Shown piece after piece: positions 4,430-34,693 of a DNA stretch of 64,000 nt (position 1 is its first letter; each line of letters begins with the position of its first letter). The stretch comes from a virus. Location: the IMG/VR virus record IMGVR_UViG_3300009514_000013, positions 20,363 through 84,362 of that record. The stretch is one strand, 5' to 3'. The notes below the pieces were generated by a model, which was not told where the DNA came from, searched no databases, and was given only the letters and a program-made list of their open reading frames with translations. Both the position numbers and the translations under genes were made by a program.

Positions 4430-5648
4430 AGCAAATCAACTCGCCCATATCCTTTCTGATCTCAGAAAACTCGCTGTCCCAATCGAATCCCTCAATCCAG
4501 ATCCAGAAAACACCAGACGTCACTCGGAATCTGATCTGAACGTCATCAAGTCTTCTCTTGATGAACTCGGCCAGCACCGACCACTTGTTGTCCAGAAGGA
4601 AGGTCGGATCATCCGCGTTGGTAATGGTACTTGGACAGCTGCAAAGGAATTAGGGTGGAAATGGATAGCCGCGGTTGTTGTTGACGAAGACCGTATGACT
4701 GCCACAAGACGATCAATCCTCGATAACCGAACTGCTGAACTCTCTGAGTGGGATACTGATCAGCTCGTAAAGCGCCTTGATGAAGCCAAGGAAGACGATT
4801 GGGAACTAGAAGACTTCGGCTGGGATGATGAAGAACTTGCTAGGTTGACTGCTTCTGAGGTTGAAGATGAAGAGGTAGATTTTGAAGAGGTTGTCGAGGA
4901 TGAAGTTCCGGAGCCTCCCAAGAAAGCAGTTTCGAAGCTAGGTGATGTTTGGAAACTGGGTGATCATATATTGGTTTGTGGCGATTCTCGCGATTCGCAA
5001 TCTTATTCATCTTTTGATTCTTCGTTTCATATGGTTCTGACAGATCCTCCTTATGGAGTTGGGTATGTAGGTGGTACTGGTTTGACCATCCAAAATGATA
5101 CTGAAGATGGGTTGGAAGAAATGTTGACGAATGTTTTTGGCAATGTTTTGGAAAAGTGTGAAAAAGGATCTATGTGGTACGTTTTTGGACCACCCGGTCC
5201 ACTTGGAATAATATTTGGGAGAGTTTTATTATCGTTTGGTGTATTGAGACAGATTCTCATATGGGTGAAAGACCGATTGGTTTTAGGAAGATCTCATTTC
5301 CATTACCGCAACGAGCCGATTTTTTATGGATGGAGTGGAACAAGTTCCAGACATCCTCCTCCAAACAGAAAGCAGGATTCTGTTTGGGAGTTTGATCGAC
5401 CACATGCCAACAAAGAACATCCTACGATGAAACCTCTGAATCTACTTCAGCATGCGATCGTGATGGGATCTTCGAAAGGTGATTTTATAGTTGATCCGTT
5501 TTCTGGTTCTGGATCTACACTAATAGCATCTGAGGCTACCGAAAGAATTTGTTGTTCTGTTGAAATCGATCCTAGATACTCAGATGTCATCATCGAACGT
5601 TGGGAGAACTTCACTGGTAAGAAGGCAAAGAGAATCAAGAAAGGTTAG
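4404..5648 (+). CDS. ParB-like N-terminal domain fused to N6A/N4C DNA methyltransferase (beta class)
   Basis: ParB-like NPDPENTRRH..LDNRTAELSEWD. Catalytic DPPY precedes HPTMKP and SAM-binding DPFSGSGST. Confidence 0.9.
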   Translation: MATSQKRPRANQLAHILSDLRKLAVPIESLNPDPENTRRHSESDLNVIKSSLDELGQHRPLVVQKEGRIIRVGNGTWTAAKELGWKWIAAVVVDEDRMTATRRSILDNRTAELSEWDTDQLVKRLDEAKEDDWELEDFGWDDEELARLTASEVEDEEVDFEEVVEDEVPEPPKKAVSKLGDVWKLGDHILVCGDSRDSQSYSSFDSSFHMVLTDPPYGVGYVGGTGLTIQNDTEDGLEEMLTNVFGNVLEKCEKGSMWYVFGPPGPLGIIFGRVLLSFGVLRQILIWVKDRLVLGRSHFHYRNEPIFYGWSGTSSRHPPPNRKQDSVWEFDRPHANKEHPTMKPLNLLQHAIVMGSSKGDFIVDPFSGSGSTLIASEATERICCSVEIDPRYSDVIIERWENFTGKKAKRIKKG

Positions 5649-6790
5649 CAACCCGGCCAGAGAATCTCTGAGATGAATACTGGGATCTGATTGGTATGGA
5701 TCGGAAACAACCTTCCATCGGTTTCGTTTGCAATGTCATCAAAAAATGCTTGTAGCTCAACAAATCCGTAGAATGTGATACCTCTCGCTTTCAACTCGTT
5801 TGCCACATCTTGCTCTGTTAACCCTCTTGCACTTTGACCATGTTCATCAGCAAACAAGAAGATGAATCGATTTGCTCCTGGTCTCCAATGTACGAACCTT
5901 CCCTTAGCCGCATCACTGATGATGTCGTATGACAGTTCGCTACTTCCAAATGTCCTGGTCATAGAAGCCAGGTTGTTCGGGTCAGGGCATGGTCCAACTG
6001 GAAATGTCATGCCTAGCGAATAGCATTCTCTATTTGGAGAAGCTGTTGAGGTGGTGTTCCCACCAGGCATGTCGATTGGGAACATAGCCACATCAGTGGA
6101 ATCGTCTTGAGTCTGTCGATTCCAGTAGTCAGCCAGCGAATCTCCAACAACAGAGACACGAGTTCCCATTGAACAACTACGGTCGATAATCACTACGATG
6201 TCGATTTTGACTACGTCCCCTGTGTTTGGAACGTCATCCACAACTCCATTACAATCGTTATCGATCTGGTCACATCGTTCGGCGAATGGAAGAACCTGAC
6301 CTTCACAAATCCACTTTCCATAATCACAATAAGAAAGTCCTATTTTGCATGGTGGGTGTGTAGCTTTCCAAAACTCAGCATCGAAGCACCAGTCTCTGGC
6401 GATCCCGTCATCAACCAACCCGTTGCAGTCGTTGTCTGAACCGTCACATTCTTCTGGTTGTTTCTTGTAATCGGTTGAACAGACGATCTCTTCCCCGTTG
6501 CAGACAGTCCGTCCCCCTCGACAGATGCCCAACCCACATGATTCTCCGACCCCACCGATCCGGTCGTCGACTTCACCATTGCAGTCATTGTCAATACCGT
6601 CACAAATCTCATCGCTTGGAAGAATGTCACCGACACATGAGACACCTATCGATGATGTTTCAGTGGTTCCAGGCCGACATTGCCCAACTCCCGAAGTTCC
6701 ACTTGGTCCCGAATAGCAAGAACCGTAGTGACTCACGAGTGGTTCTTCACACGCATATAGAAGTACCAAGAGGATTGAAAGGCTTCTCAT
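5645..6790 (-). CDS. lipoprotein with Cys-rich MopE-like repeats and C-terminal vWA domain
   Basis: Lipobox LLYAC; three E.CD..DNDCNG.VDD repeats; MIDAS motif DRSCS. Confidence 0.75.
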   Translation of the reverse strand: MRSLSILLVLLYACEEPLVSHYGSCYSGPSGTSGVGQCRPGTTETSSIGVSCVGDILPSDEICDGIDNDCNGEVDDRIGGVGESCGLGICRGGRTVCNGEEIVCSTDYKKQPEECDGSDNDCNGLVDDGIARDWCFDAEFWKATHPPCKIGLSYCDYGKWICEGQVLPFAERCDQIDNDCNGVVDDVPNTGDVVKIDIVVIIDRSCSMGTRVSVVGDSLADYWNRQTQDDSTDVAMFPIDMPGGNTTSTASPNRECYSLGMTFPVGPCPDPNNLASMTRTFGSSELSYDIISDAAKGRFVHWRPGANRFIFLFADEHGQSARGLTEQDVANELKARGITFYGFVELQAFFDDIANETDGRLFPIHTNQIPVFISEILWPGC

Positions 6791-13969: not shown

Positions 13970-15955
13970 ATGGCTGAACACTCTCTCCTCCACATCCGCA
14001 ACCGAGCGATCCAGAAAGCCAGAGGCAACTACAACCACTACGCCGAGTTCGCTCTTCGCAACAACTTAGGAGACCACATCAGGCAGGGAGTCCTTCACCG
14101 CATCTGGCAGGTTCACATCCAGCACTGTTGGAAGCATGGGTACGATCCAGCAATCCTGGCCCCATTTGCTCACGGAAAGTGCCAGCCCAAAGGTTCGTTG
14201 GTCCAAATGGCCGATGGGTCGAGAGTTCCTATTGAGAGGATCAACGGTGAACAAGTCATTGGTTTCGATGAAGAGGAATACTCGTTCTCTCCATCTTCTG
14301 CCCGGTCATTCCCAAACGGAGTCAAGCGAGTCCTCAGGTTGAATCTATGGTCTGGTCGTTCTGTTGAAGTAACCGAAAATCACCCACTCCTGACGGCCGA
14401 TGGGTGGTCTCCAGCTACCAAATTGGAAGTGGGTGATCATGTAGCTGTGTCTCGTAAAATTCCAGACGTTGGTCGTACTCGTCTACGTGAAGGTGAGGCG
14501 CGACTAATTGGGTATTTCATTGGGGATGGGGGGACAACTACACGTCCGATTTTCACAGTAGCCGATGAAGTGATTGAGCAATCCTTTTGTGAGACTGCGA
14601 GGGGGCTTGGGTTTGATCCCAATTCTCACTGTTACCAAAAGACAGCGAAGACGGTATATGTCAAAGGTGCTAGGAAGTGGCTTCGTAGCATAGGCCTTCT
14701 TGGTTGCAACTCGCACACAAAGCGCATCCCGGAGAGCATCTTCAAGGCACCTCTAGATCAGGTATCCGAGTGTCTCGCTGCTTATTTTGAATGCGATGGT
14801 AACGTCTCCACACAACGTACAGGGTCCGCTGAATACTATTCGGTTAATCGAGATTTGCTTTCCGATGTCCAATCTCTCCTCCTGCGGTTCTCAATCAGAT
14901 CTCAACTCAGACGAAAACGAGGTCGTTACAATGGTGAAGTTCACGAGTCTTGGCGCCTGACGATCACAGGGAGTGATAACCTCGAATTGTTCAGAGATCA
15001 GATTCCTGTGATCGGTTCGAAGCGGGAGAAGCTAAAGTCGATTCAATTGGTCAAGGCAAATGCGAATGACGATGGGGTACCTCTAGTGTACCGTGAGTAC
15101 CTGTATCAAACTCCTTATTGGCATAAGAGGAATACCGGTGTTTCTCTCGACCAAATGTCAAAAAGGACTACCAACCGAGAGACTGTTCGGAAAGCAGCCT
15201 TAGCTGAAGGAAACAAGTATCTGATGAACTTGGTTTCGGATTGGGTGTCGTGGGATCGAATCGTATCGATTGAAGACATGGGTGAATTGGAGACCTTTGG
15301 GTTGGAAGTCGATCGTCTTCACACGTACATCACTAATGACGTCATCGTTCACAACACGATTCAGCTAGTCGTTGGTTTCCCAACATTCCTACTCGGACAA
15401 GATCCAAACCAACGCATCAAGGTCATCTGTCAGAATGACGTCAGAGCCATGGAGCGCGTCATGGGTATCTCTGCAATCATCAGATCAGCTCCTTACCAGG
15501 TCCTGTTCCCAAACGTCAGAGAGGTACCAAGAGAGCTCGCTAGGAAGAAAGGTCTACAGTCCAAATGGACTTCTCACGAGATCTTCTTACACAGAGAAGG
15601 CTTCGCCATTGACCCATCCGTTCAAGCAGCAGGCGTCCTCTCAGGCGGTACTGGTGGCCGTTGCGATCTCCTCATCTTTGACGATGTTGTTGACCAGAAG
15701 AACGCCATTGACCAACCAGAACTCAGACAGAAGGTGATCGACAACGTAGACAACGTCTGGTCTCAAAGGCTCGAGCCGACAGGTAGAAAGCTCTTTGTAG
15801 GAACTCCATGGCATCAGGCCGATCTGACCCACAAACTCATGGAGAGGCCATCCTGGTCGGTCTTACGCAACTGGATATCCGAAGACTTCAAACGGATTGA
15901 GATGGAGGTCTACAATCCACCACCTGGCTATCCGATTCCTGTGCTTCAGGAGTGA
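13970..15955 (+). CDS. terL: terminase large subunit, N-terminal ATPase half, with intein
   Basis: Walker A APFAHGK|T, Walker B LLIFDDVVD, motif III VGTPWH; ends before any nuclease domain. Confidence 0.85.
   Translation: MAEHSLLHIRNRAIQKARGNYNHYAEFALRNNLGDHIRQGVLHRIWQVHIQHCWKHGYDPAILAPFAHGKCQPKGSLVQMADGSRVPIERINGEQVIGFDEEEYSFSPSSARSFPNGVKRVLRLNLWSGRSVEVTENHPLLTADGWSPATKLEVGDHVAVSRKIPDVGRTRLREGEARLIGYFIGDGGTTTRPIFTVADEVIEQSFCETARGLGFDPNSHCYQKTAKTVYVKGARKWLRSIGLLGCNSHTKRIPESIFKAPLDQVSECLAAYFECDGNVSTQRTGSAEYYSVNRDLLSDVQSLLLRFSIRSQLRRKRGRYNGEVHESWRLTITGSDNLELFRDQIPVIGSKREKLKSIQLVKANANDDGVPLVYREYLYQTPYWHKRNTGVSLDQMSKRTTNRETVRKAALAEGNKYLMNLVSDWVSWDRIVSIEDMGELETFGLEVDRLHTYITNDVIVHNTIQLVVGFPTFLLGQDPNQRIKVICQNDVRAMERVMGISAIIRSAPYQVLFPNVREVPRELARKKGLQSKWTSHEIFLHREGFAIDPSVQAAGVLSGGTGGRCDLLIFDDVVDQKNAIDQPELRQKVIDNVDNVWSQRLEPTGRKLFVGTPWHQADLTHKLMERPSWSVLRNWISEDFKRIEMEVYNPPPGYPIPVLQE
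14180..15355 (+). mobile_element. 392-aa intein with LAGLIDADG homing endonuclease, inserted in the TerL P-loop
   Basis: Starts CQPKGS, block B TENHP, motifs LIGYFIGDG and LAAYFECDG, ends VIVHN|T. Confidence 0.92.
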
Positions 15956-19952: not shown

Positions 19953-20978
19953 ATGAAGAAAATCCTAGTCCTAGGTGGTGGTCATCAAGGCAAGATCATC
20001 GCAAAAGAACTCGCACCTGATTTCGAAGTAATGGTTGGTGACATTTACGAGACCGTCTTACCAAACGTGGATCCTATATATCTTGATGTTACAGACACTG
20101 AGATGCTCAAGGACGAAGTCCTCGGATACGATCTCGTCATTGGTGCTCTCCCATCGAAGTTCGGATACCAAGCTGTTAGAGCCGTCCTAGAGGTCGGTGT
20201 TCCAATGATAGACCTCTCGTTCTGTCCAGAAGATTTGATGGAGTTAAATGGTCTAGCCAAAAAGAATGGCACCTTCCTCATTTCAGATTGTGGTCTCGCT
20301 CCAGGTCTCTCCAATCTCATTGTTGGCTACGAATTCAGCAAGAGAGAAGTAGAGAACATCAAGATCATGGTTGGTGGAGTGGCCAAAGACATCGATGCAC
20401 CGTATGGGTACAAGGTCAGCTGGTCTGTTGATGACCTCTTAGAGGAATACACTAGACCTGCAAGGATTCGTATTGATGGAGAGAATGTCCAGATCCCAAC
20501 GCTCACCAACTACGAGGTTGTAAACATCCCAGGAGTTGGAATCATGGAAGCGTTCTGCACCGACGGTCTCCGATCACTACTGCGAATTCACGGCCCTAAG
20601 AACCTCGTTGAGAAGACTCTCAGGTGGAGAGGTCATGTTGACCAGATCAAGCCACTGATACGTGATGGAACGTTCGTAGAGACCATCACAAGAGAATGCC
20701 AGAATGGTGAGGATCTCGTGGTGATGAGGATCGAGATGGATGATGATGTCATTCAGACAGTCATCAAGGCATCTGATGGAATCTCCGCTATGTCTCGTGG
20801 AACAGCTCTCACTACAGCGATGACAGCTAGGTTGGTTCTGGAAGATGATGTGTTTGTGAATTCGAAAGGAGTCTACTTCATGGAAGACTTCTTACCAGAA
20901 GAGTCGATGAAGTTGTTAGAGATGTTGGAGACTCGAGCTGGGGTAGCGTTCAATTGGTTCAAGAAAGGAGAAGAGTAA
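19953..20978 (+). CDS. saccharopine dehydrogenase / lysine 6-dehydrogenase family oxidoreductase
   Basis: Rossmann ILVLGGGHQG; DCGLAPGLSN; WS...LLEEYTRPAR; EAFCTDGL; EKTLRW.GH. Confidence 0.85.
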   Translation: MKKILVLGGGHQGKIIAKELAPDFEVMVGDIYETVLPNVDPIYLDVTDTEMLKDEVLGYDLVIGALPSKFGYQAVRAVLEVGVPMIDLSFCPEDLMELNGLAKKNGTFLISDCGLAPGLSNLIVGYEFSKREVENIKIMVGGVAKDIDAPYGYKVSWSVDDLLEEYTRPARIRIDGENVQIPTLTNYEVVNIPGVGIMEAFCTDGLRSLLRIHGPKNLVEKTLRWRGHVDQIKPLIRDGTFVETITRECQNGEDLVVMRIEMDDDVIQTVIKASDGISAMSRGTALTTAMTARLVLEDDVFVNSKGVYFMEDFLPEESMKLLEMLETRAGVAFNWFKKGEE

Positions 20979-28298: not shown

Positions 28299-28661
28299 AT
28301 GAAAAGTTTCCTGTTAGCAATCGCCCTATTCCTCGTACCTGCCATGGCATCGGCCGATTGTCGCGTTGTTCGTTCAGCTACTAAGAAAAGTAAAGAGTTC
28401 GTAACAACCATCTCATGCACGATCGAAGGTCAGTTGGTGGACCTCCTCCTCATCCGCCAACACCTGGCTGCGGTGAAAATCCAAAACAAAGATTCTGGTT
28501 CGTTGATAACGGTGCATGAGGATGATCTCATCTTGAATGTTGAAGCATGGTCATGGGCGATCATCCGCCTCCAGAACATCATCCATGAACAAGGTAAAGT
28601 GATTCAGAAGCTACAAAAGTCTTGTCGGAAGCATTGTTTTACGACTAAAGATAAGAAGTGA
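28299..28661 (+). CDS. secreted hypothetical protein
   Basis: Signal peptide MKSFLLAIALFLVPAMASA. Confidence 0.55.
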   Translation: MKSFLLAIALFLVPAMASADCRVVRSATKKSKEFVTTISCTIEGQLVDLLLIRQHLAAVKIQNKDSGSLITVHEDDLILNVEAWSWAIIRLQNIIHEQGKVIQKLQKSCRKHCFTTKDKK

Positions 28662-28969: not shown

Positions 28970-29743
28970 GTGTCAATTCCAATCCGTCTCAAGTCGATTC
29001 CTCTATGGGTTGAACACTGGTCAGAAGAATCACTCCGGAAGAGATACTCCCAAGAACCAAGAGCATTCGAACGCGGATTCAGACTCAAGGCATTCTCTGA
29101 TGATGAAGCAACATTCCCGAGCTTCTCCCAATGCGAAGTCCCTGGGATCACTCTTGGAGAGATTCAACGATCGAACTGGCCCAAGTTCACAGGAGTCGAC
29201 CTCTCATCTAAGAAGCGTCCTGGTAACACCATTGCCACGGTTGCAGTCGATCCGAAGACAAGACGTCGATATCCCATAGACATTCGATATGGTGCCTGGA
29301 GGTCATCTGAGACGGCTGAGCAAATCCGTATTGTTGATGAACTCTTCAGCCCGATGGTTATCATGGTTGAAGACAACGCTTACCAAGAGGCTCTCCTGGA
29401 TTGGATCTCTGATGACAAGTCTCGGTTTCCGTATTGGGTTAAGATCGAAGCCACTACCACTACAGGTGGTAGAAAGTCGGATCTAGAGAAAGGTCTCCCC
29501 GGACTTGAGGTCGAATTCTCGAAAAAGGGTTGGGCGTTTCCCCTATCCGAGTATGAGAATGTGACTCCTGATGAGGCACCACCAGCTGGCCACTGGGCGC
29601 GTTTAGCCCAAGAACTTCGCCATCACCCCATTGCAGCTACATCGGACGGTGTAATGGCTTTGTGGTTCGCCAGGCAAGGTATTGAACTCTACGGCGGAAT
29701 GGCTTTCCACGATGTCCAAATTGGAGACTTGACAGTCCGCTAA
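28970..29743 (+). CDS. terL: terminase large subunit, C-terminal RNase H-like nuclease half
   Basis: LW.EHW.EESL linker, GVDLS, VEDNAYQ, SDGVMALW; GGAGG RBS before GTG. Confidence 0.75.
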   Translation: MSIPIRLKSIPLWVEHWSEESLRKRYSQEPRAFERGFRLKAFSDDEATFPSFSQCEVPGITLGEIQRSNWPKFTGVDLSSKKRPGNTIATVAVDPKTRRRYPIDIRYGAWRSSETAEQIRIVDELFSPMVIMVEDNAYQEALLDWISDDKSRFPYWVKIEATTTTGGRKSDLEKGLPGLEVEFSKKGWAFPLSEYENVTPDEAPPAGHWARLAQELRHHPIAATSDGVMALWFARQGIELYGGMAFHDVQIGDLTVR

Positions 29744-29954
29744 CACTAATTTGATCTTTTATAGGTTGTGCACGCAAACGTGACGGAGGGTCGTAAAAGG
29801 AGTACTGGTGGTCCGGGTTGCGACGGAGAAGCCTGCGAGACTGGCGTATACAGGGGGATGAGACACATGCTGAAGCCCCGATACCAGTCAGGTGGCATTG
29901 TGGTTCCGACTGCGATGTTCATCAGTTGTGTGACGATCGGGAGAGACCGATATC

Positions 29955-30034
29955 GGGGATGAGAAGGGTTCGACAGTCTGATGAAATCCTGAAAGGGACC
30001 AGGCTGGACCAGCGTTCGATTCGCTGCATCTCCA
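29955..30034 (+). ncRNA. minimal tmRNA-like RNA (tRNA-like domain only)
   Basis: Acceptor GGGGATG/CATCTCC+A with G3-U70; stemless D-loop AGAAGGGTTCGAC; helix AGTCTG/CAGGCT; TCCT-GAAA-GGGA cap; GGAC; T-arm CAGCG-TTCGATT-CGCTG. Confidence 0.8.
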
Positions 30035-30071
30035 TTGAAACCAGGTGGGCAAATGAGCCTAGCTTTATTGG

Positions 30072-30269
30072 ATGCGTATGAACTCGGTAAGAAAACATGC
30101 TCTCAAAGCGGGAATGGCCAACTCCATGTGGACCCCTGAAGATATCCGTGAAATTCGCAAGTTGAGGGAAGAGGGTTCCTCTTACAAGGAAATCCTTTAC
30201 ATGTACCCGATGTCCAAATCCACACTTTCCTACATTGTGAATTACAAAACCCATGTATCATCTCTCTAG
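30072..30269 (+). CDS. small HTH protein
   Basis: DIREIRKL..G.SYKEI..MY.MSKSTLSYIVN.KT. Confidence 0.65.
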   Translation: MRMNSVRKHALKAGMANSMWTPEDIREIRKLREEGSSYKEILYMYPMSKSTLSYIVNYKTHVSSL

Positions 30270-30277
30270 AGAAAGAG

Positions 30278-30634
30278 ATGGACTCATACTCCAAATCGGA
30301 TTTCGAACTTCTTGTTTTTGAGAGTGGGATAGCATTCTCCATCCGAGAAAAAGGCGGTAGCAAAGCAAGATTTGAGAACGTGTCGATAGATGCTATTGGC
30401 ATTTCAACAAGTGGTTTTCTTTATGGATATTGGTACCCGATAGATGCGGATTTCCCGACTCGCATCACTGGAGTTTCTTTCAAAGCGGTGTGCGAATTCT
30501 GCGAAAGCGAGATGGTTGTCCGTCGCATTACGAAGAAACCTGCTCAGTTCAGTGTGTCTTGCAAAGAGTGTAAAAGAATTCTGAATGTTCCGAATCGTCC
30601 TCCGCTACGTCTGGTGATCAACAACAAAAAATGA
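30278..30634 (+). CDS. zinc-ribbon protein
   Basis: CEFC..CKEC. Confidence 0.55.
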   Translation: MDSYSKSDFELLVFESGIAFSIREKGGSKARFENVSIDAIGISTSGFLYGYWYPIDADFPTRITGVSFKAVCEFCESEMVVRRITKKPAQFSVSCKECKRILNVPNRPPLRLVINNKK

Positions 30635-30649
30635 TGTAGGTGTTGATCA

Positions 30650-31204
30650 ATGAGTGATTACGTCCGTGGAGACATCGTTAATCTAAACCGTGCTCAAAGT
30701 TCTCAAGTTGAGATTTTGACTGTCCCGACAACCGAAGATGAACCGTACACAATAACACTTCCGATCAACGAAGAATATAAGTCTTTCACATACTTAGCAT
30801 CGGTTGATGATTCGCTATCAGATGTTGCGTTTGGCCTCGAAGATGTTCTAGAGAAAGAACAAACCAAGTTCTCAGTTGCTGTGAATGACGATCAGGATGC
30901 TGTTGTCATCGTTGGACCGTTGGGTCTGTCATTTGAAGGCACTACCTCAACCAATCTTCGGTACTCGCTCATTGAAGACGCAGTTCGAGCCATTCGTCAC
31001 GATACTGGTGAAAAGATTGGAAACTGCCGTGTCCTCGCTTCGGAGAATTCTTTGGAGAAGCTTCGGGAATACGCTACAAGAGATCGTGATGGTACTGTTC
31101 GGATTGTGAATCAGATCCGGTTACGAGAATTGAATTCGGCTAATGTTTTCGAAGTGGAAGCTGATGAGATCCTCACAGTCATCGAAAGAGAAGGAACCGC
31201 ATGA
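30650..31204 (+). CDS. hypothetical protein
   Basis: 184-aa ORF. Confidence 0.6.
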   Translation: MSDYVRGDIVNLNRAQSSQVEILTVPTTEDEPYTITLPINEEYKSFTYLASVDDSLSDVAFGLEDVLEKEQTKFSVAVNDDQDAVVIVGPLGLSFEGTTSTNLRYSLIEDAVRAIRHDTGEKIGNCRVLASENSLEKLREYATRDRDGTVRIVNQIRLRELNSANVFEVEADEILTVIEREGTA

Positions 31205-32974: not shown

Positions 32975-34693
32975 ATGGCTGGAATCGATATGTCTTTTGG
33001 TGGTCAAGAATTTCCGAGAGCGTTGGAGGTTCGCCAATACCTCTACAACAATGCGATCTTAGGGCAAACGACTAGGCTCCGAACTTTGGATCGATTGGAT
33101 GCTTTCTACAAAGGTCTTGAATATGCTCACCACCAAACCGGATGGGATGGATTCTCCGCAGATCAATTAGAGACGATTTCTCCTGATGCCACTAAACCGT
33201 TAGGTTTCACCAAACCAGCCGACAAGACCATGGTTGGTCAAAAGCGACCAACAGCACCTCTTCGTTTGACCGGAACGGTTGTGGATCGGTTCACAGGCCT
33301 CCTCTTCTCGAAGAAGCGTCTACCCAAAGTCACGATTGAAGATGATCAAGAATCCAACGACTTCGTCCAAGCCGTATTCAAGAAGACACGGTTTTGGAGA
33401 ACTATGTACAACTCCCGAACCTATGGCGGTTCGATGGGCTCTTCTTTGATCACAGTTCAGTTGAGGAATGGTCGTTTCTCGTTCAAAGCTCATAGTCCCA
33501 AGACGATTCAAGACATCGTTTGGGAAGATCCAGATCTCAAGATACCTGCTGGAGTTCTCATCCAGTACATCTATTACGTGGAAAAGGATGAAGTAGATCC
33601 GAAGACAGGTGCTCCGACTGGAACAATGAAGAACTGTCCTTATCTCTATCGAAGGATTATAGATGCTGAGTGTGACGTCATTTTCAAACCGGCTGAGATT
33701 GTGAACAACAAACTTCCTGAGATGGAGATTGATGAACACCAAAGCTACCAGCATAGATTGGGAGAATTCCCTGGAGTCTGGATTCAGAACCTTCCATGTG
33801 AAGAAGAAATCGATGGCGTTGCCGATTGCGAAGGTGTCTATCAGATCTTCGACACAATCGATCGGCAACTGGCTCAATCGAACAAGGGGTTGTTAGCCAA
33901 TCAGGATCCTACAGTTGTCCTTTCGATTGATAAGAAACTCATGTCGGCAGGAGTTCCTATCCACAAAGGATCTGAAAATTCTTTGAATGTTGGAATGGGT
34001 GGATCAGCCAACTACTTGGAGATATCTGCATCGGGAATCACAGCAGCAAGAGAATTCGTCAAAGACTTGAAACAAGCTGCAATGGATCGAGCTCAGGTTG
34101 TTCTTGCTGATCCTCAGACGATGGCTGGTTCAGCACAGTCTGCTTTAGCAATTGAGTTTCTTTATCAACCGATGCTCGAGAAAGCTGACAGGTTACGAGA
34201 GCAGTATGGTCAAGCGATTGAGGTTCTTGTTGACCTACTGTTGAAGTTGGGTCGGATTTGGTCGGATCCGCTTCGATATGAAGGAAATGCGAAACCTAAG
34301 TTTGATTTGCCTCCGAAGATTGTTGAGATGGATTCAGATCCCGAGAATCCAGAAGCTGAGATGGGTGTTCAAAAGCTCAAAGTGTTTCCAGTACCCGGAG
34401 AAGGTTCTCAGGTAGCATTGTCTTGGGGTCCTTACTTCTCGCCTACTCCTACAGATGTTCAGACGCAAATTGGTGTTGTTGCTACAGCTTATGGAGCTGG
34501 ATTGATTGACCTGGACACGGCAGTCAGCAAAGTAGCTCACATCCTGGATATTGAAGATGAAGAAGGTCTGTTACGGCGAGTGAAGGAAGAAAGCAAAAAG
34601 CGCAAAGCTGATGTGATGGCTAATTTAGAAGAAGCTGGAATGGGATGGCCTACCTCTCCAATTCCACGTCCAGAAGGTGAGGAACTCATATGA
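32975..34693 (+). CDS. portal protein (SPP1 gp6-like)
   Basis: 572 aa; H.LGEFP.VWIQN, IFD.IDR, SALAIE..Y.P; first gene of the head module. Confidence 0.75.
   Translation: MAGIDMSFGGQEFPRALEVRQYLYNNAILGQTTRLRTLDRLDAFYKGLEYAHHQTGWDGFSADQLETISPDATKPLGFTKPADKTMVGQKRPTAPLRLTGTVVDRFTGLLFSKKRLPKVTIEDDQESNDFVQAVFKKTRFWRTMYNSRTYGGSMGSSLITVQLRNGRFSFKAHSPKTIQDIVWEDPDLKIPAGVLIQYIYYVEKDEVDPKTGAPTGTMKNCPYLYRRIIDAECDVIFKPAEIVNNKLPEMEIDEHQSYQHRLGEFPGVWIQNLPCEEEIDGVADCEGVYQIFDTIDRQLAQSNKGLLANQDPTVVLSIDKKLMSAGVPIHKGSENSLNVGMGGSANYLEISASGITAAREFVKDLKQAAMDRAQVVLADPQTMAGSAQSALAIEFLYQPMLEKADRLREQYGQAIEVLVDLLLKLGRIWSDPLRYEGNAKPKFDLPPKIVEMDSDPENPEAEMGVQKLKVFPVPGEGSQVALSWGPYFSPTPTDVQTQIGVVATAYGAGLIDLDTAVSKVAHILDIEDEEGLLRRVKEESKKRKADVMANLEEAGMGWPTSPIPRPEGEELI

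Follow-up and report, generated by a model that had tools for sequence, protein, structure and literature searches.

An 80-nt phage gene for the tRNA-like domain of tmRNA without a tag-coding domain, and the family of mini-tmRNAs around it

A phage-encoded transfer-messenger RNA (tmRNA) reduced to its tRNA-like domain (TLD) has been in print since 2009. Hudson, Lau & Williams (2014) list 'Mycobacterium phage DS6A (TLD only)' (PMC4131195), and the passages that cite Mao et al. (2009) describe the DS6A molecule as an inhibitor of E. coli tmRNA and already discuss for it both an SmpB-decoy function and a tag-free rescue function (PMC4131195; PMC11915505). The DNA analysed here, referred to below as the window, is a stretch of 64,000 nucleotides (nt) from IMG/VR virus record IMGVR_UViG_3300009514_000013 (positions 20,363 to 84,362 of that record). 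Judged from its sequence, the segment at 29955-30034 of the window is a real gene for a complete tmRNA TLD without a tag-coding domain, termed a mini-tmRNA in what follows. The kind is already known from DS6A, and the unprecedented status implied by a preliminary description of this DNA, whose two proposed functions are those just named for DS6A, therefore does not hold; the breadth of the kind across phages was not found in print. No paper extending phage TLD-only tmRNAs from DS6A to a family was returned by the literature search, although Table S2 of PMC11915505 may contain phage 'no CDS' sequences beyond those in its main text; that 2025 paper on the tmRNA database gives 9 'Standard, no CDS' (coding sequence) and 79 bacteriophage sequences among 97,179 (PMC11915505).

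The DS6A gene (tmRNA Website tmID 11587) lies unannotated at 28478-28560, between gp33 and the DNA polymerase III gene of a temperate 60.6-kb mycobacteriophage with an integrase. The window phage is unrelated and larger (84 kb, with no integrase found), and its gene is placed between a terminase nuclease gene and a portal gene. The two RNAs nevertheless agree in the order of their parts, in a length of about 80 nt, in the lack of an encoded CCA and in their location in a phage genome. They share a 7-bp acceptor stem with G3:U70, a stemless analogue of the D-loop, a short helix 2 with an A-rich loop and a small cap hairpin, a 5-bp T-arm and a discriminator A. In sequence they differ, DS6A carrying GGTGGTCGAC for the GGGTTCGAC of the window, GCAC for GGAC and CCGCACGCGG for the cap TCCT-GAAA-GGGA. 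The DS6A gene matches the Rfam tmRNA model RF00023 end to end (43.2 bits). With R1, a covariance model built from the window gene and four other IMG/VR members and with DS6A outside its seed, DS6A 28478-28557 scores 63.3 bits (E 5.1e-11), which shows homology with the window gene.

Compared with the one-piece bacterial tmRNA (RF00023), the window RNA has the whole TLD and the start of helix 2 and is without about 296 model positions, that is, all pseudoknots, the resume codon, the tag frame and the stop codon; it therefore cannot do the mRNA half of trans-translation. CDS-less tmRNAs have also been described from jakobid mitochondria (RF02544) and from two plastids, the Mallomonadaceae forms being about 65 bp, and these organellar TLDs without a tag frame are kept alongside SmpB, alanine acceptance being the one function known for them (PMC11915505). 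There they are the sole tmRNA, whereas the window RNA would be an extra, viral copy beside the full tmRNA of the host. Engineered TLD fragments (Gutmann 2003, Bessho 2007 and Neubauer 2012, cited in PMC8012679 and PMC11090510) are laboratory constructs, in contrast to the natural gene of the window. Alanine tRNA (tRNA-Ala) shares with the window RNA the G3:U70 acceptor, A73 and a T-arm with a TTCGATT loop; unlike it, the window RNA lacks both the D stem and the anticodon arm and cannot read a codon. In detail, the design of the window RNA, in which a short loop closes helix 2, is presumably that of the engineered fragments. The gene and its parts are as follows.

29955-30034, + strand: mini-tmRNA (TLD-only tmRNA) gene, 80 nt through discriminator A, from the sequence and covariance models
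29955-29961 with 30027-30033, + strand: acceptor stem GGGGATG / CATCTCC, 7 of 7 pairs, G3:U70 included
29962-29974, + strand: D-loop analogue AGAAGGGTTCGAC, without a D stem, aligning to the Rfam tmRNA consensus GAucuGGaUUCGAC
29975-29980 with 30000-30005, + strand: helix 2, AGTCTG / CAGGCT, 6 bp, from the RNAfold minimum free energy (MFE) structure
29981-29999, + strand: interior of helix 2, 19 nt, with the A-rich loop ATGAAA, the cap hairpin and a bulged C
29987-29998, + strand: cap hairpin TCCT-GAAA-GGGA, 4 bp with a GAAA loop, 12 of the 19 interior nt
29999, + strand: single bulged C, from the sequence
30006-30009, + strand: GGAC linker, a conserved tmRNA TLD element, from the sequence and Rfam alignment
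30010-30026, + strand: T-arm CAGCG-TTCGATT-CGCTG, 5-bp stem, from the sequence
30034, + strand: discriminator A73, from the sequence

Read base for base, every structural element listed in the preliminary description is present where it had been placed. Its account of the helix-2 interior stands as to the loop and the tetraloop hairpin and lacks only the bulged C at 29999. The D-loop analogue terminates in GGGTTCGAC, and the discriminator A is followed by TTG, no CCA being encoded. The 19-nt interior occupies the place that the pseudoknots and the tag frame take in full tmRNAs: no sequence able to form pseudoknots PK1-PK4 is available in the gene, and neither resume codon, tag frame nor stop codon is present, in line with the 296 model positions skipped. 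The RNAfold MFE structure of the 80 nt is the TLD fold with a capped helix 2.

On 281 nt around the gene (29855-30135), searched with permissive filters, RF00023 gave 47.4 bits (E 5.2e-18) against a gathering score of 47, and its alignment covers model positions 1-374 while skipping 296 central ones, which is the match at both ends with a central deletion that had been predicted. In a search of the whole 84,362-bp genome the same model gave 56 bits (E 9.1e-23) as its sole match. By score, the gene belongs to RF00023, though as a borderline member, and all hallmarks of a tmRNA TLD were found in it (a 7-bp acceptor stem with G3:U70, discriminator A, the T-arm, GG.UUCGAC and GGAC). The 89.8 bits obtained with R1 are inflated, as the window is one of its five seeds. 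The permuted tmRNA model RF04321 reached only 11.7 bits, which indicates the standard, contiguous order. As for a canonical tRNA, there was no RF00005 match (an overlapping tRNA match would fall to the clan rule) and ARAGORN reported 0 genes. The mitochondrial tmRNA model, which the preliminary description had proposed to run as well, gave no match, RF02544 being absent from the five matches at E <=10 on 29855-30135.

Several other identities were considered and rejected. An attP remnant derived from ssrA is contradicted by the presence and pairing of the 5' strand, and neither a Phage_integrase nor a Resolvase match was found in the 84-kb record; the earlier view that the gene is neither an attP fragment nor permuted is thereby upheld. 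Assembly collapse, named in advance as a possible refutation, is ruled out, because well over 100 independent contigs have the same 69-95-nt form, as do the finished genomes of five phage isolates, DS6A and four Streptomyces phages. A protein gene across the RNA was likewise discarded, as the four overlapping open reading frames (ORFs; 87, 110, 64 and 54 aa) had no PHROG match at E <=0.1.

Relatives were collected by a strict pattern scan, which returned five further viral contigs, by a looser scan of IMG/VR with GGGG, CTCCA, GG.TTCGAC and GGA fixed (at least 119 stretches), and by a core-only IMG/VR pattern that left the acceptor stem unconstrained (at least 120 stretches). All counts of family members and their neighbours given below are among the matches listed. 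The looser pattern yielded 122 places with 97 distinct sequences of 69-95 nt (mode 79), and the core-only scan added to these 97 a further 49 distinct sequences that the first pattern could not reach. The constancy of GG.TTCGAC in the family is not independent evidence, as the motif was built into the search patterns. The acceptor stem has 7 of 7 pairs in 122/122 places, the three pairs not constrained by the pattern included. The linker is GGAC in 84 of the 97 members and GGAG, GGAA or GGAT in the remainder (GGA being fixed by the pattern), and the helix-2 interior is 25-34 nt in most members, against 19 nt in the window gene.

R1 located exactly one copy in each of 100 sources. In the resulting alignment 98.1% of cells pair, compared with 64.3% after shuffling and 44-55% when the partners are slid, and the covariation score is 0.828 against 0.160. 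Two-sided changes occur at 14 of the 18 pairs, with compensatory changes in all three helices. The helix-2 pairs are formed in 94.3% of cells and those of the T-stem in 99.8%, with two-sided changes in all six and all five of them, respectively. This alignment was fitted to R1 and hence leans towards the structure; an end-anchored, alignment-free count, which is unbiased, agrees with it, each T-stem pair being present in 96-97 of the 97 sequences and drawn from as many as five pair types, and helix-2 pairs 1-6 being present in 79-96 of the 97. The changes clearly point to structural selection on the mini-tmRNA family. Together with the RF00023 alignment, the compensatory changes in the 100 relatives bear out the earlier identification of a complete alanine-type TLD without a tag-coding domain, and the search for phage homologues with covariation that had been proposed was thus productive.

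Of 17 copies tested with the current Rfam model, 15 were recognized at its gathering score, in each case as a short tmRNA match. None of the 122 places (0) was called by ARAGORN as a short gene. Its tmRNA calls of 320-340 nt at three of the contigs (L014, L040 and L076) were rejected, since the implied tags are implausible and Rfam places those at L014 and L076 as 83-85 nt.

The alanine identity set was counted on the sequences retrieved by the core-only scan, of which 126 of 129 distinct ones have at least 6 of 7 acceptor pairs and at least 4 of 5 T-stem pairs. G3:U70 is kept in 125 of these 126 sequences, although no acceptor constraint was imposed, and the lone exception resembles a register slip; discriminator A73 is present in 126/126. 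Acceptor pair 4, by comparison, is free to vary (G:C in 97, C:G in 16, others in 13). Among the 49 sequences beyond the reach of the first pattern, 48 have G3:U70. CCA is encoded in 40/126 members, in contrast to the window gene. That the alanine identity set is retained so strictly is an argument for the natural importance of charging, which the published sponge idea does not need.

An alanine-type tRNA-like RNA of 81 nt (G007 68803-68883; L319 1501-1581, - strand) was seen in a related phage of 81 kb; it has a GGGGAGG / CCTCTCC acceptor including G3:U70, discriminator A and a T-arm but lacks GG.UUCGAC and GGAC. Its score is 24.2 bits under R1 and 13.3 bits under RF00023, and it goes uncalled by ARAGORN.

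Family members were frequently found close to tRNA genes: 29 of the 122 places lie within 500 nt of one, nearly all on the same strand and often only 1-10 nt off, which fits tRNA-type transcription and processing. Other copies occupy head-gene or replication modules. Clustering of the ORFs within 2.5 kb of the mini-tmRNA at 146 distinct loci gave prohead protease/capsid (18), portal (13) and major head (13) proteins as the commonest neighbours, followed by HNH endonuclease (12), endonuclease VII (9) and DnaB-like helicase (9). In the 12-locus cluster, from other phages, the HNH endonuclease gene comes after the mini-tmRNA. A constant protein partner was not found, no ORF family occurring in more than 18 of the 146 loci. 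One 136-kb IMG/VR phage contig carries two different mini-tmRNAs (L042 6175-6254 and L068 8192-8271). At L076, a Pistol self-cleaving ribozyme (RF02679, 51.9 bits) was recognized at 6093-6154 on the - strand, about 105 nt upstream of the same-strand mini-tmRNA, and it may help to process the mini-tmRNA transcript.

A blastn search with one member led to cultured Streptomyces phages, and R1 confirmed the gene in 4/4 of those fetched: Shaeky (78.4 bits, L321 1491-1569), pSt2308 (65.1 bits, L323 1501-1578), LuckySocke (64.0 bits, L320 1496-1573) and BRock (58.6 bits, L322 1492-1569). These mini-tmRNAs are unannotated and situated in gaps of tRNA gene arrays. GiJojo and Alone3, also Streptomyces phages, were matched by blastn only.

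Bacterial assemblies, taken as one genome per species, yielded 56 stretches (L125-L180), many of them in dense tRNA arrays typical of phage DNA; two of the 56 are permuted tmRNAs and were set aside as false positives. Candidatus Poribacteria account for 21 of the 56 (e.g. L146 4650-4732). Their mini-tmRNA is 82-86 nt long, with conserved synteny and a promoter-like TTGATA...GGTATCCTT just upstream. All five complete Poribacteria chromosomes (G001-G005) carry a mini-tmRNA (64-70 bits) together with a normal tmRNA of 353-359 nt (177-198 bits), and one of the five has two mini-tmRNAs. Poribacteria are not mentioned in the main text of the 2025 tmRNA database paper (PMC11915505). In three Nostoc genomes (L130, L137 and L156), an identical 81-nt mini-tmRNA stands about 120-200 nt from a suppressor-like tRNA with a CTA anticodon, labelled tRNA-Pyl by ARAGORN. 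A contig from a Pseudescherichia metagenome-assembled genome (L171 4791-4889) has a 99-nt form that looks as if the 5' ~50 nt of an enterobacterial-type tmRNA had been joined directly to its 3' ~50 nt; this form suggests that mini-tmRNAs can arise independently through internal deletion.

The genome to which the window belongs is an IMG/VR record of 84,362 bp, at about 90% completeness; its G+C content is 46.7%, and it contains no tRNA genes. Within this record no match to SmpB, a CCA-adding enzyme or an RF-1/ArfB-type or Pth-type protein was found. All genes neighbouring the mini-tmRNA are on the + strand, and the features of the locus are these.

28970-29743, + strand: stand-alone gene for the terminase large-subunit nuclease, the upstream neighbour (phrog_38 positions 485-699 of 760)
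29744-30649, + strand: accessory stretch of 906 nt holding the mini-tmRNA, absent from the nearest relative, L181
29744-29954, + strand: non-coding leader of 211 nt, 5' of the mini-tmRNA
30072-30269, + strand: 65-aa helix-turn-helix (HTH) ORF (phrog_11376, E 3.4e-07; phrog_20467, HNH endonuclease, E 1.2e-05)
30278-30634, + strand: 118-aa ORF, no Pfam or PHROG match and no tblastn match in the compared loci
32975-34693, + strand: portal gene, downstream

L181 has a terminase nuclease 60% identical to that of the window; its gene runs to 4768, and after a gap of 18 nt the homologue of window ORF 30650-31204 begins at 4787. Because the one directly precedes the other there, 29744-30649 is regarded as an accessory stretch; outside the RNA gene, it has no similarity in any other compared locus. 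What holds the window copy thus looks like an acquired cassette, with the terminase nuclease gene on one side and the portal gene on the other. The HNH-related 65-aa ORF, which also has a weak HTH_7 match below the cut-off, is possibly a remnant of the element that imported the cassette. Such stand-alone nuclease genes, of about 260 aa, are common in relatives: apart from the window's own protein, 81 stand-alone nuclease homologues of 198-277 aa were found, and the nuclease alignment led to 80 related loci. A search of the locus against the cultured-phage collection by blastn and megablast gave no match, a scan of viral contigs with the terminase nuclease as a single protein found no close relative, and an exact 20-mer scan of metagenome contigs returned six stretches, none of them related to the locus. 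The nearest cultured portal proteins are those of Ralstonia phages, at 28% identity.

The leader repeats the first 10 nt of the gene, GGGGATGAGA, at 29854-29863, 101 nt upstream of the gene. A role as a structured or sequestering RNA is unsupported, as 29744-30071 folds no better than shuffled sequence (z -0.31) and the mini-tmRNA fold persists in both the MFE and centroid structures; so is a decayed second copy, the model with filters off finding no second match. The terminase large subunit of this phage is encoded by two genes 13 kb apart, the nuclease gene at 28970-29743 and an ATPase gene at 13970-15955; the latter (phrog_38 positions 324-479) is interrupted by an intein (Intein_splicing and LAGLIDADG_3).

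With regard to function, the TLD and SmpB together are known to mimic tRNA-Ala: the RNA is charged by AlaRS, is bound by EF-Tu like a tRNA and is brought to a non-stop ribosome whose A site is empty; once peptidyl transfer and translocation have taken place, that site receives the resume codon of the mRNA-like domain (PMC8012679). A figure legend in the same paper describes TLD and SmpB delivered by EF-Tu to a non-stop ribosome (PDB 4V8Q; PMC8012679), which implies that a TLD alone can reach the A site. A TLD-only RNA would, from its parts, be equipped up to peptidyl transfer and have nothing for the next step. As its equipment ends there, it should compete with full tmRNA for SmpB and, if charged, for stalled ribosomes; by analogy, such competition without tagging would fit the inhibition cited for DS6A.

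On balance we lean towards reading the window RNA as an alanine-chargeable, SmpB-binding competitor of the host tmRNA that would suppress SsrA tagging. The mini-tmRNA would probably be co-transcribed by read-through with the late genes on the + strand, and its ends would be made in the manner of a tRNA, the 5' end cut by RNase P and the 3' end by host trimming. Since the gene encodes no CCA and the phage is without a CCA-adding enzyme, CCA would be added by the host enzyme. SmpB would then bind the RNA and AlaRS charge it via G3:U70 and A73. No SsrA degradation tag could be delivered, because there is no resume codon, tag frame or stop codon, and the benefit to the phage would lie in interference with the tagging of unfinished proteins by the host.

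Some results tell against the identification of the gene or are neutral to it: a default-filter Rfam scan of the 64-kb window gave no match, and ARAGORN, from which the preliminary description had expected a hit, called no gene either in the window or in the 84,362-bp genome as a whole. For the 80 nt the fold energy is ordinary (z -1.29, with 20 of 200 shuffles as stable or better), so that support for the gene lies in the covariance-model match and the covariation of its relatives rather than in thermodynamics; this ordinary stability counts against the competitor reading as well. Further observations weigh against that reading. A sigma-70-like scan of the locus calls no promoter site, and the terminator-like hairpin at 30046-30061 is at chance level. 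No mini-tmRNA was found within 4 kb in any of the 80 related loci (0/80) and no clear one in the five large relatives searched whole (0/5); it is dispensable in this phage lineage, and no close relative was found to show selection on the window's own copy. The inhibition of full-length tmRNA, known for the DS6A molecule only, was independent of chargeability according to PMC4131195, and because of this pure SmpB titration fails to explain the strict alanine set. Finally, the presence of a mini-tmRNA beside a normal tmRNA in 5/5 complete Poribacteria chromosomes is hard to reconcile with a simple poison.

The last two points bear on a different proposal, which we consider rather unlikely, namely that the RNA is a productive rescue device. 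A charged mini-tmRNA with SmpB would accept the nascent chain, and ribosomes would be recycled without the 10-codon tag step, resolution being achieved by drop-off with peptidyl-tRNA hydrolase or by a release-factor-like protein. The phage would gain by having more ribosomes freed at a time, late in infection, when mRNAs are being cut, and not by a block on tagging. Retention of the alanine set (125/126 and 126/126) is needless for a pure SmpB sponge and favours such a device, as do the chromosomal copies beside full tmRNA in Poribacteria and the frequent position of the gene in head-gene modules, which are heavily translated (18, 13 and 13 of the 146 loci). However, without a resume or stop codon no known route frees a peptidyl-TLD from the ribosome, the 84-kb phage record has no match to SmpB, an RF-1/ArfB-type or a Pth-type protein that could assist, and the sole experiment in print, as cited, is one of tmRNA inhibition (PMC4131195; PMC11915505).

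It is improbable that the window RNA has some other tRNA-like role, whether as a decoy or trigger-blocker in defence, as a sink for tRNA-processing enzymes or as a non-ribosomal alanine donor. CoCoNuTs defence systems with SmpB-like domains are predicted to bind tmRNA (PMC11090510), the alanine-type RNA of the related 81-kb phage has no tmRNA D-loop motif, so that the acceptor and T module may be the selected part, and the mini-tmRNA has no consistent protein companion, the top neighbour cluster reaching 18 of 146 loci. Against this, a defence interaction with a mini-tmRNA would be conjecture drawn by analogy, and the retention of GG.UUCGAC, GGAC and an A-rich helix-2 loop, aligned to the Rfam consensus, points to SmpB and not to general tRNA mimicry. 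That the gene is a functionless passenger, either a recent or decaying copy from a cassette of the homing-endonuclease type or an attP remnant of a host ssrA, is very improbable: the 906-nt stretch missing from the nearest relative, the HNH-family-related 65-aa ORF beside the gene, its absence from 80/80 related loci, the HNH endonuclease gene after the mini-tmRNA in the 12-locus cluster and the 10-nt duplicate of the gene start in the leader would all suit it, but the helices are perfect, every conserved motif is present with no sign of decay, an attP remnant would retain the 3' part only and not both acceptor strands, the 84-kb record has no integrase or resolvase, and structural selection on the whole family is clear.

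Nearly all bacteria have trans-translation, which has attracted study as a target for antibiotics. An 80-nt RNA that naturally competes with it would be a ready-made inhibitor design, and the mini-tmRNA may also serve as a probe of the minimal RNA needs of SmpB, AlaRS, EF-Tu and the ribosome. The phage form in print rests on one genome, that of DS6A, whereas well over a hundred distinct phage versions were recorded here. New for the family are the unbiased count of the alanine set, the unannotated carriers among Streptomyces phages and the chromosomal copies of Poribacteria; what the window itself adds is a modest gain, one stand-alone copy in a phage without tRNA genes, in an apparently acquired cassette. 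As the Streptomyces phages with an unannotated mini-tmRNA are cultivable, what a phage gains from a tag-less tmRNA is directly testable. For the family at large we advance, tentatively and as a possibility still more doubtful than probable, that mini-tmRNAs are a widespread, horizontally mobile class of phage RNA that would be charged with alanine and enter stalled ribosomes, forming a minimal device for tag-free rescue or for hijacking rescue, which would uncouple the recycling of ribosomes from the destruction of proteins during infection and which at least one bacterial lineage, the Poribacteria, may have adopted chromosomally.

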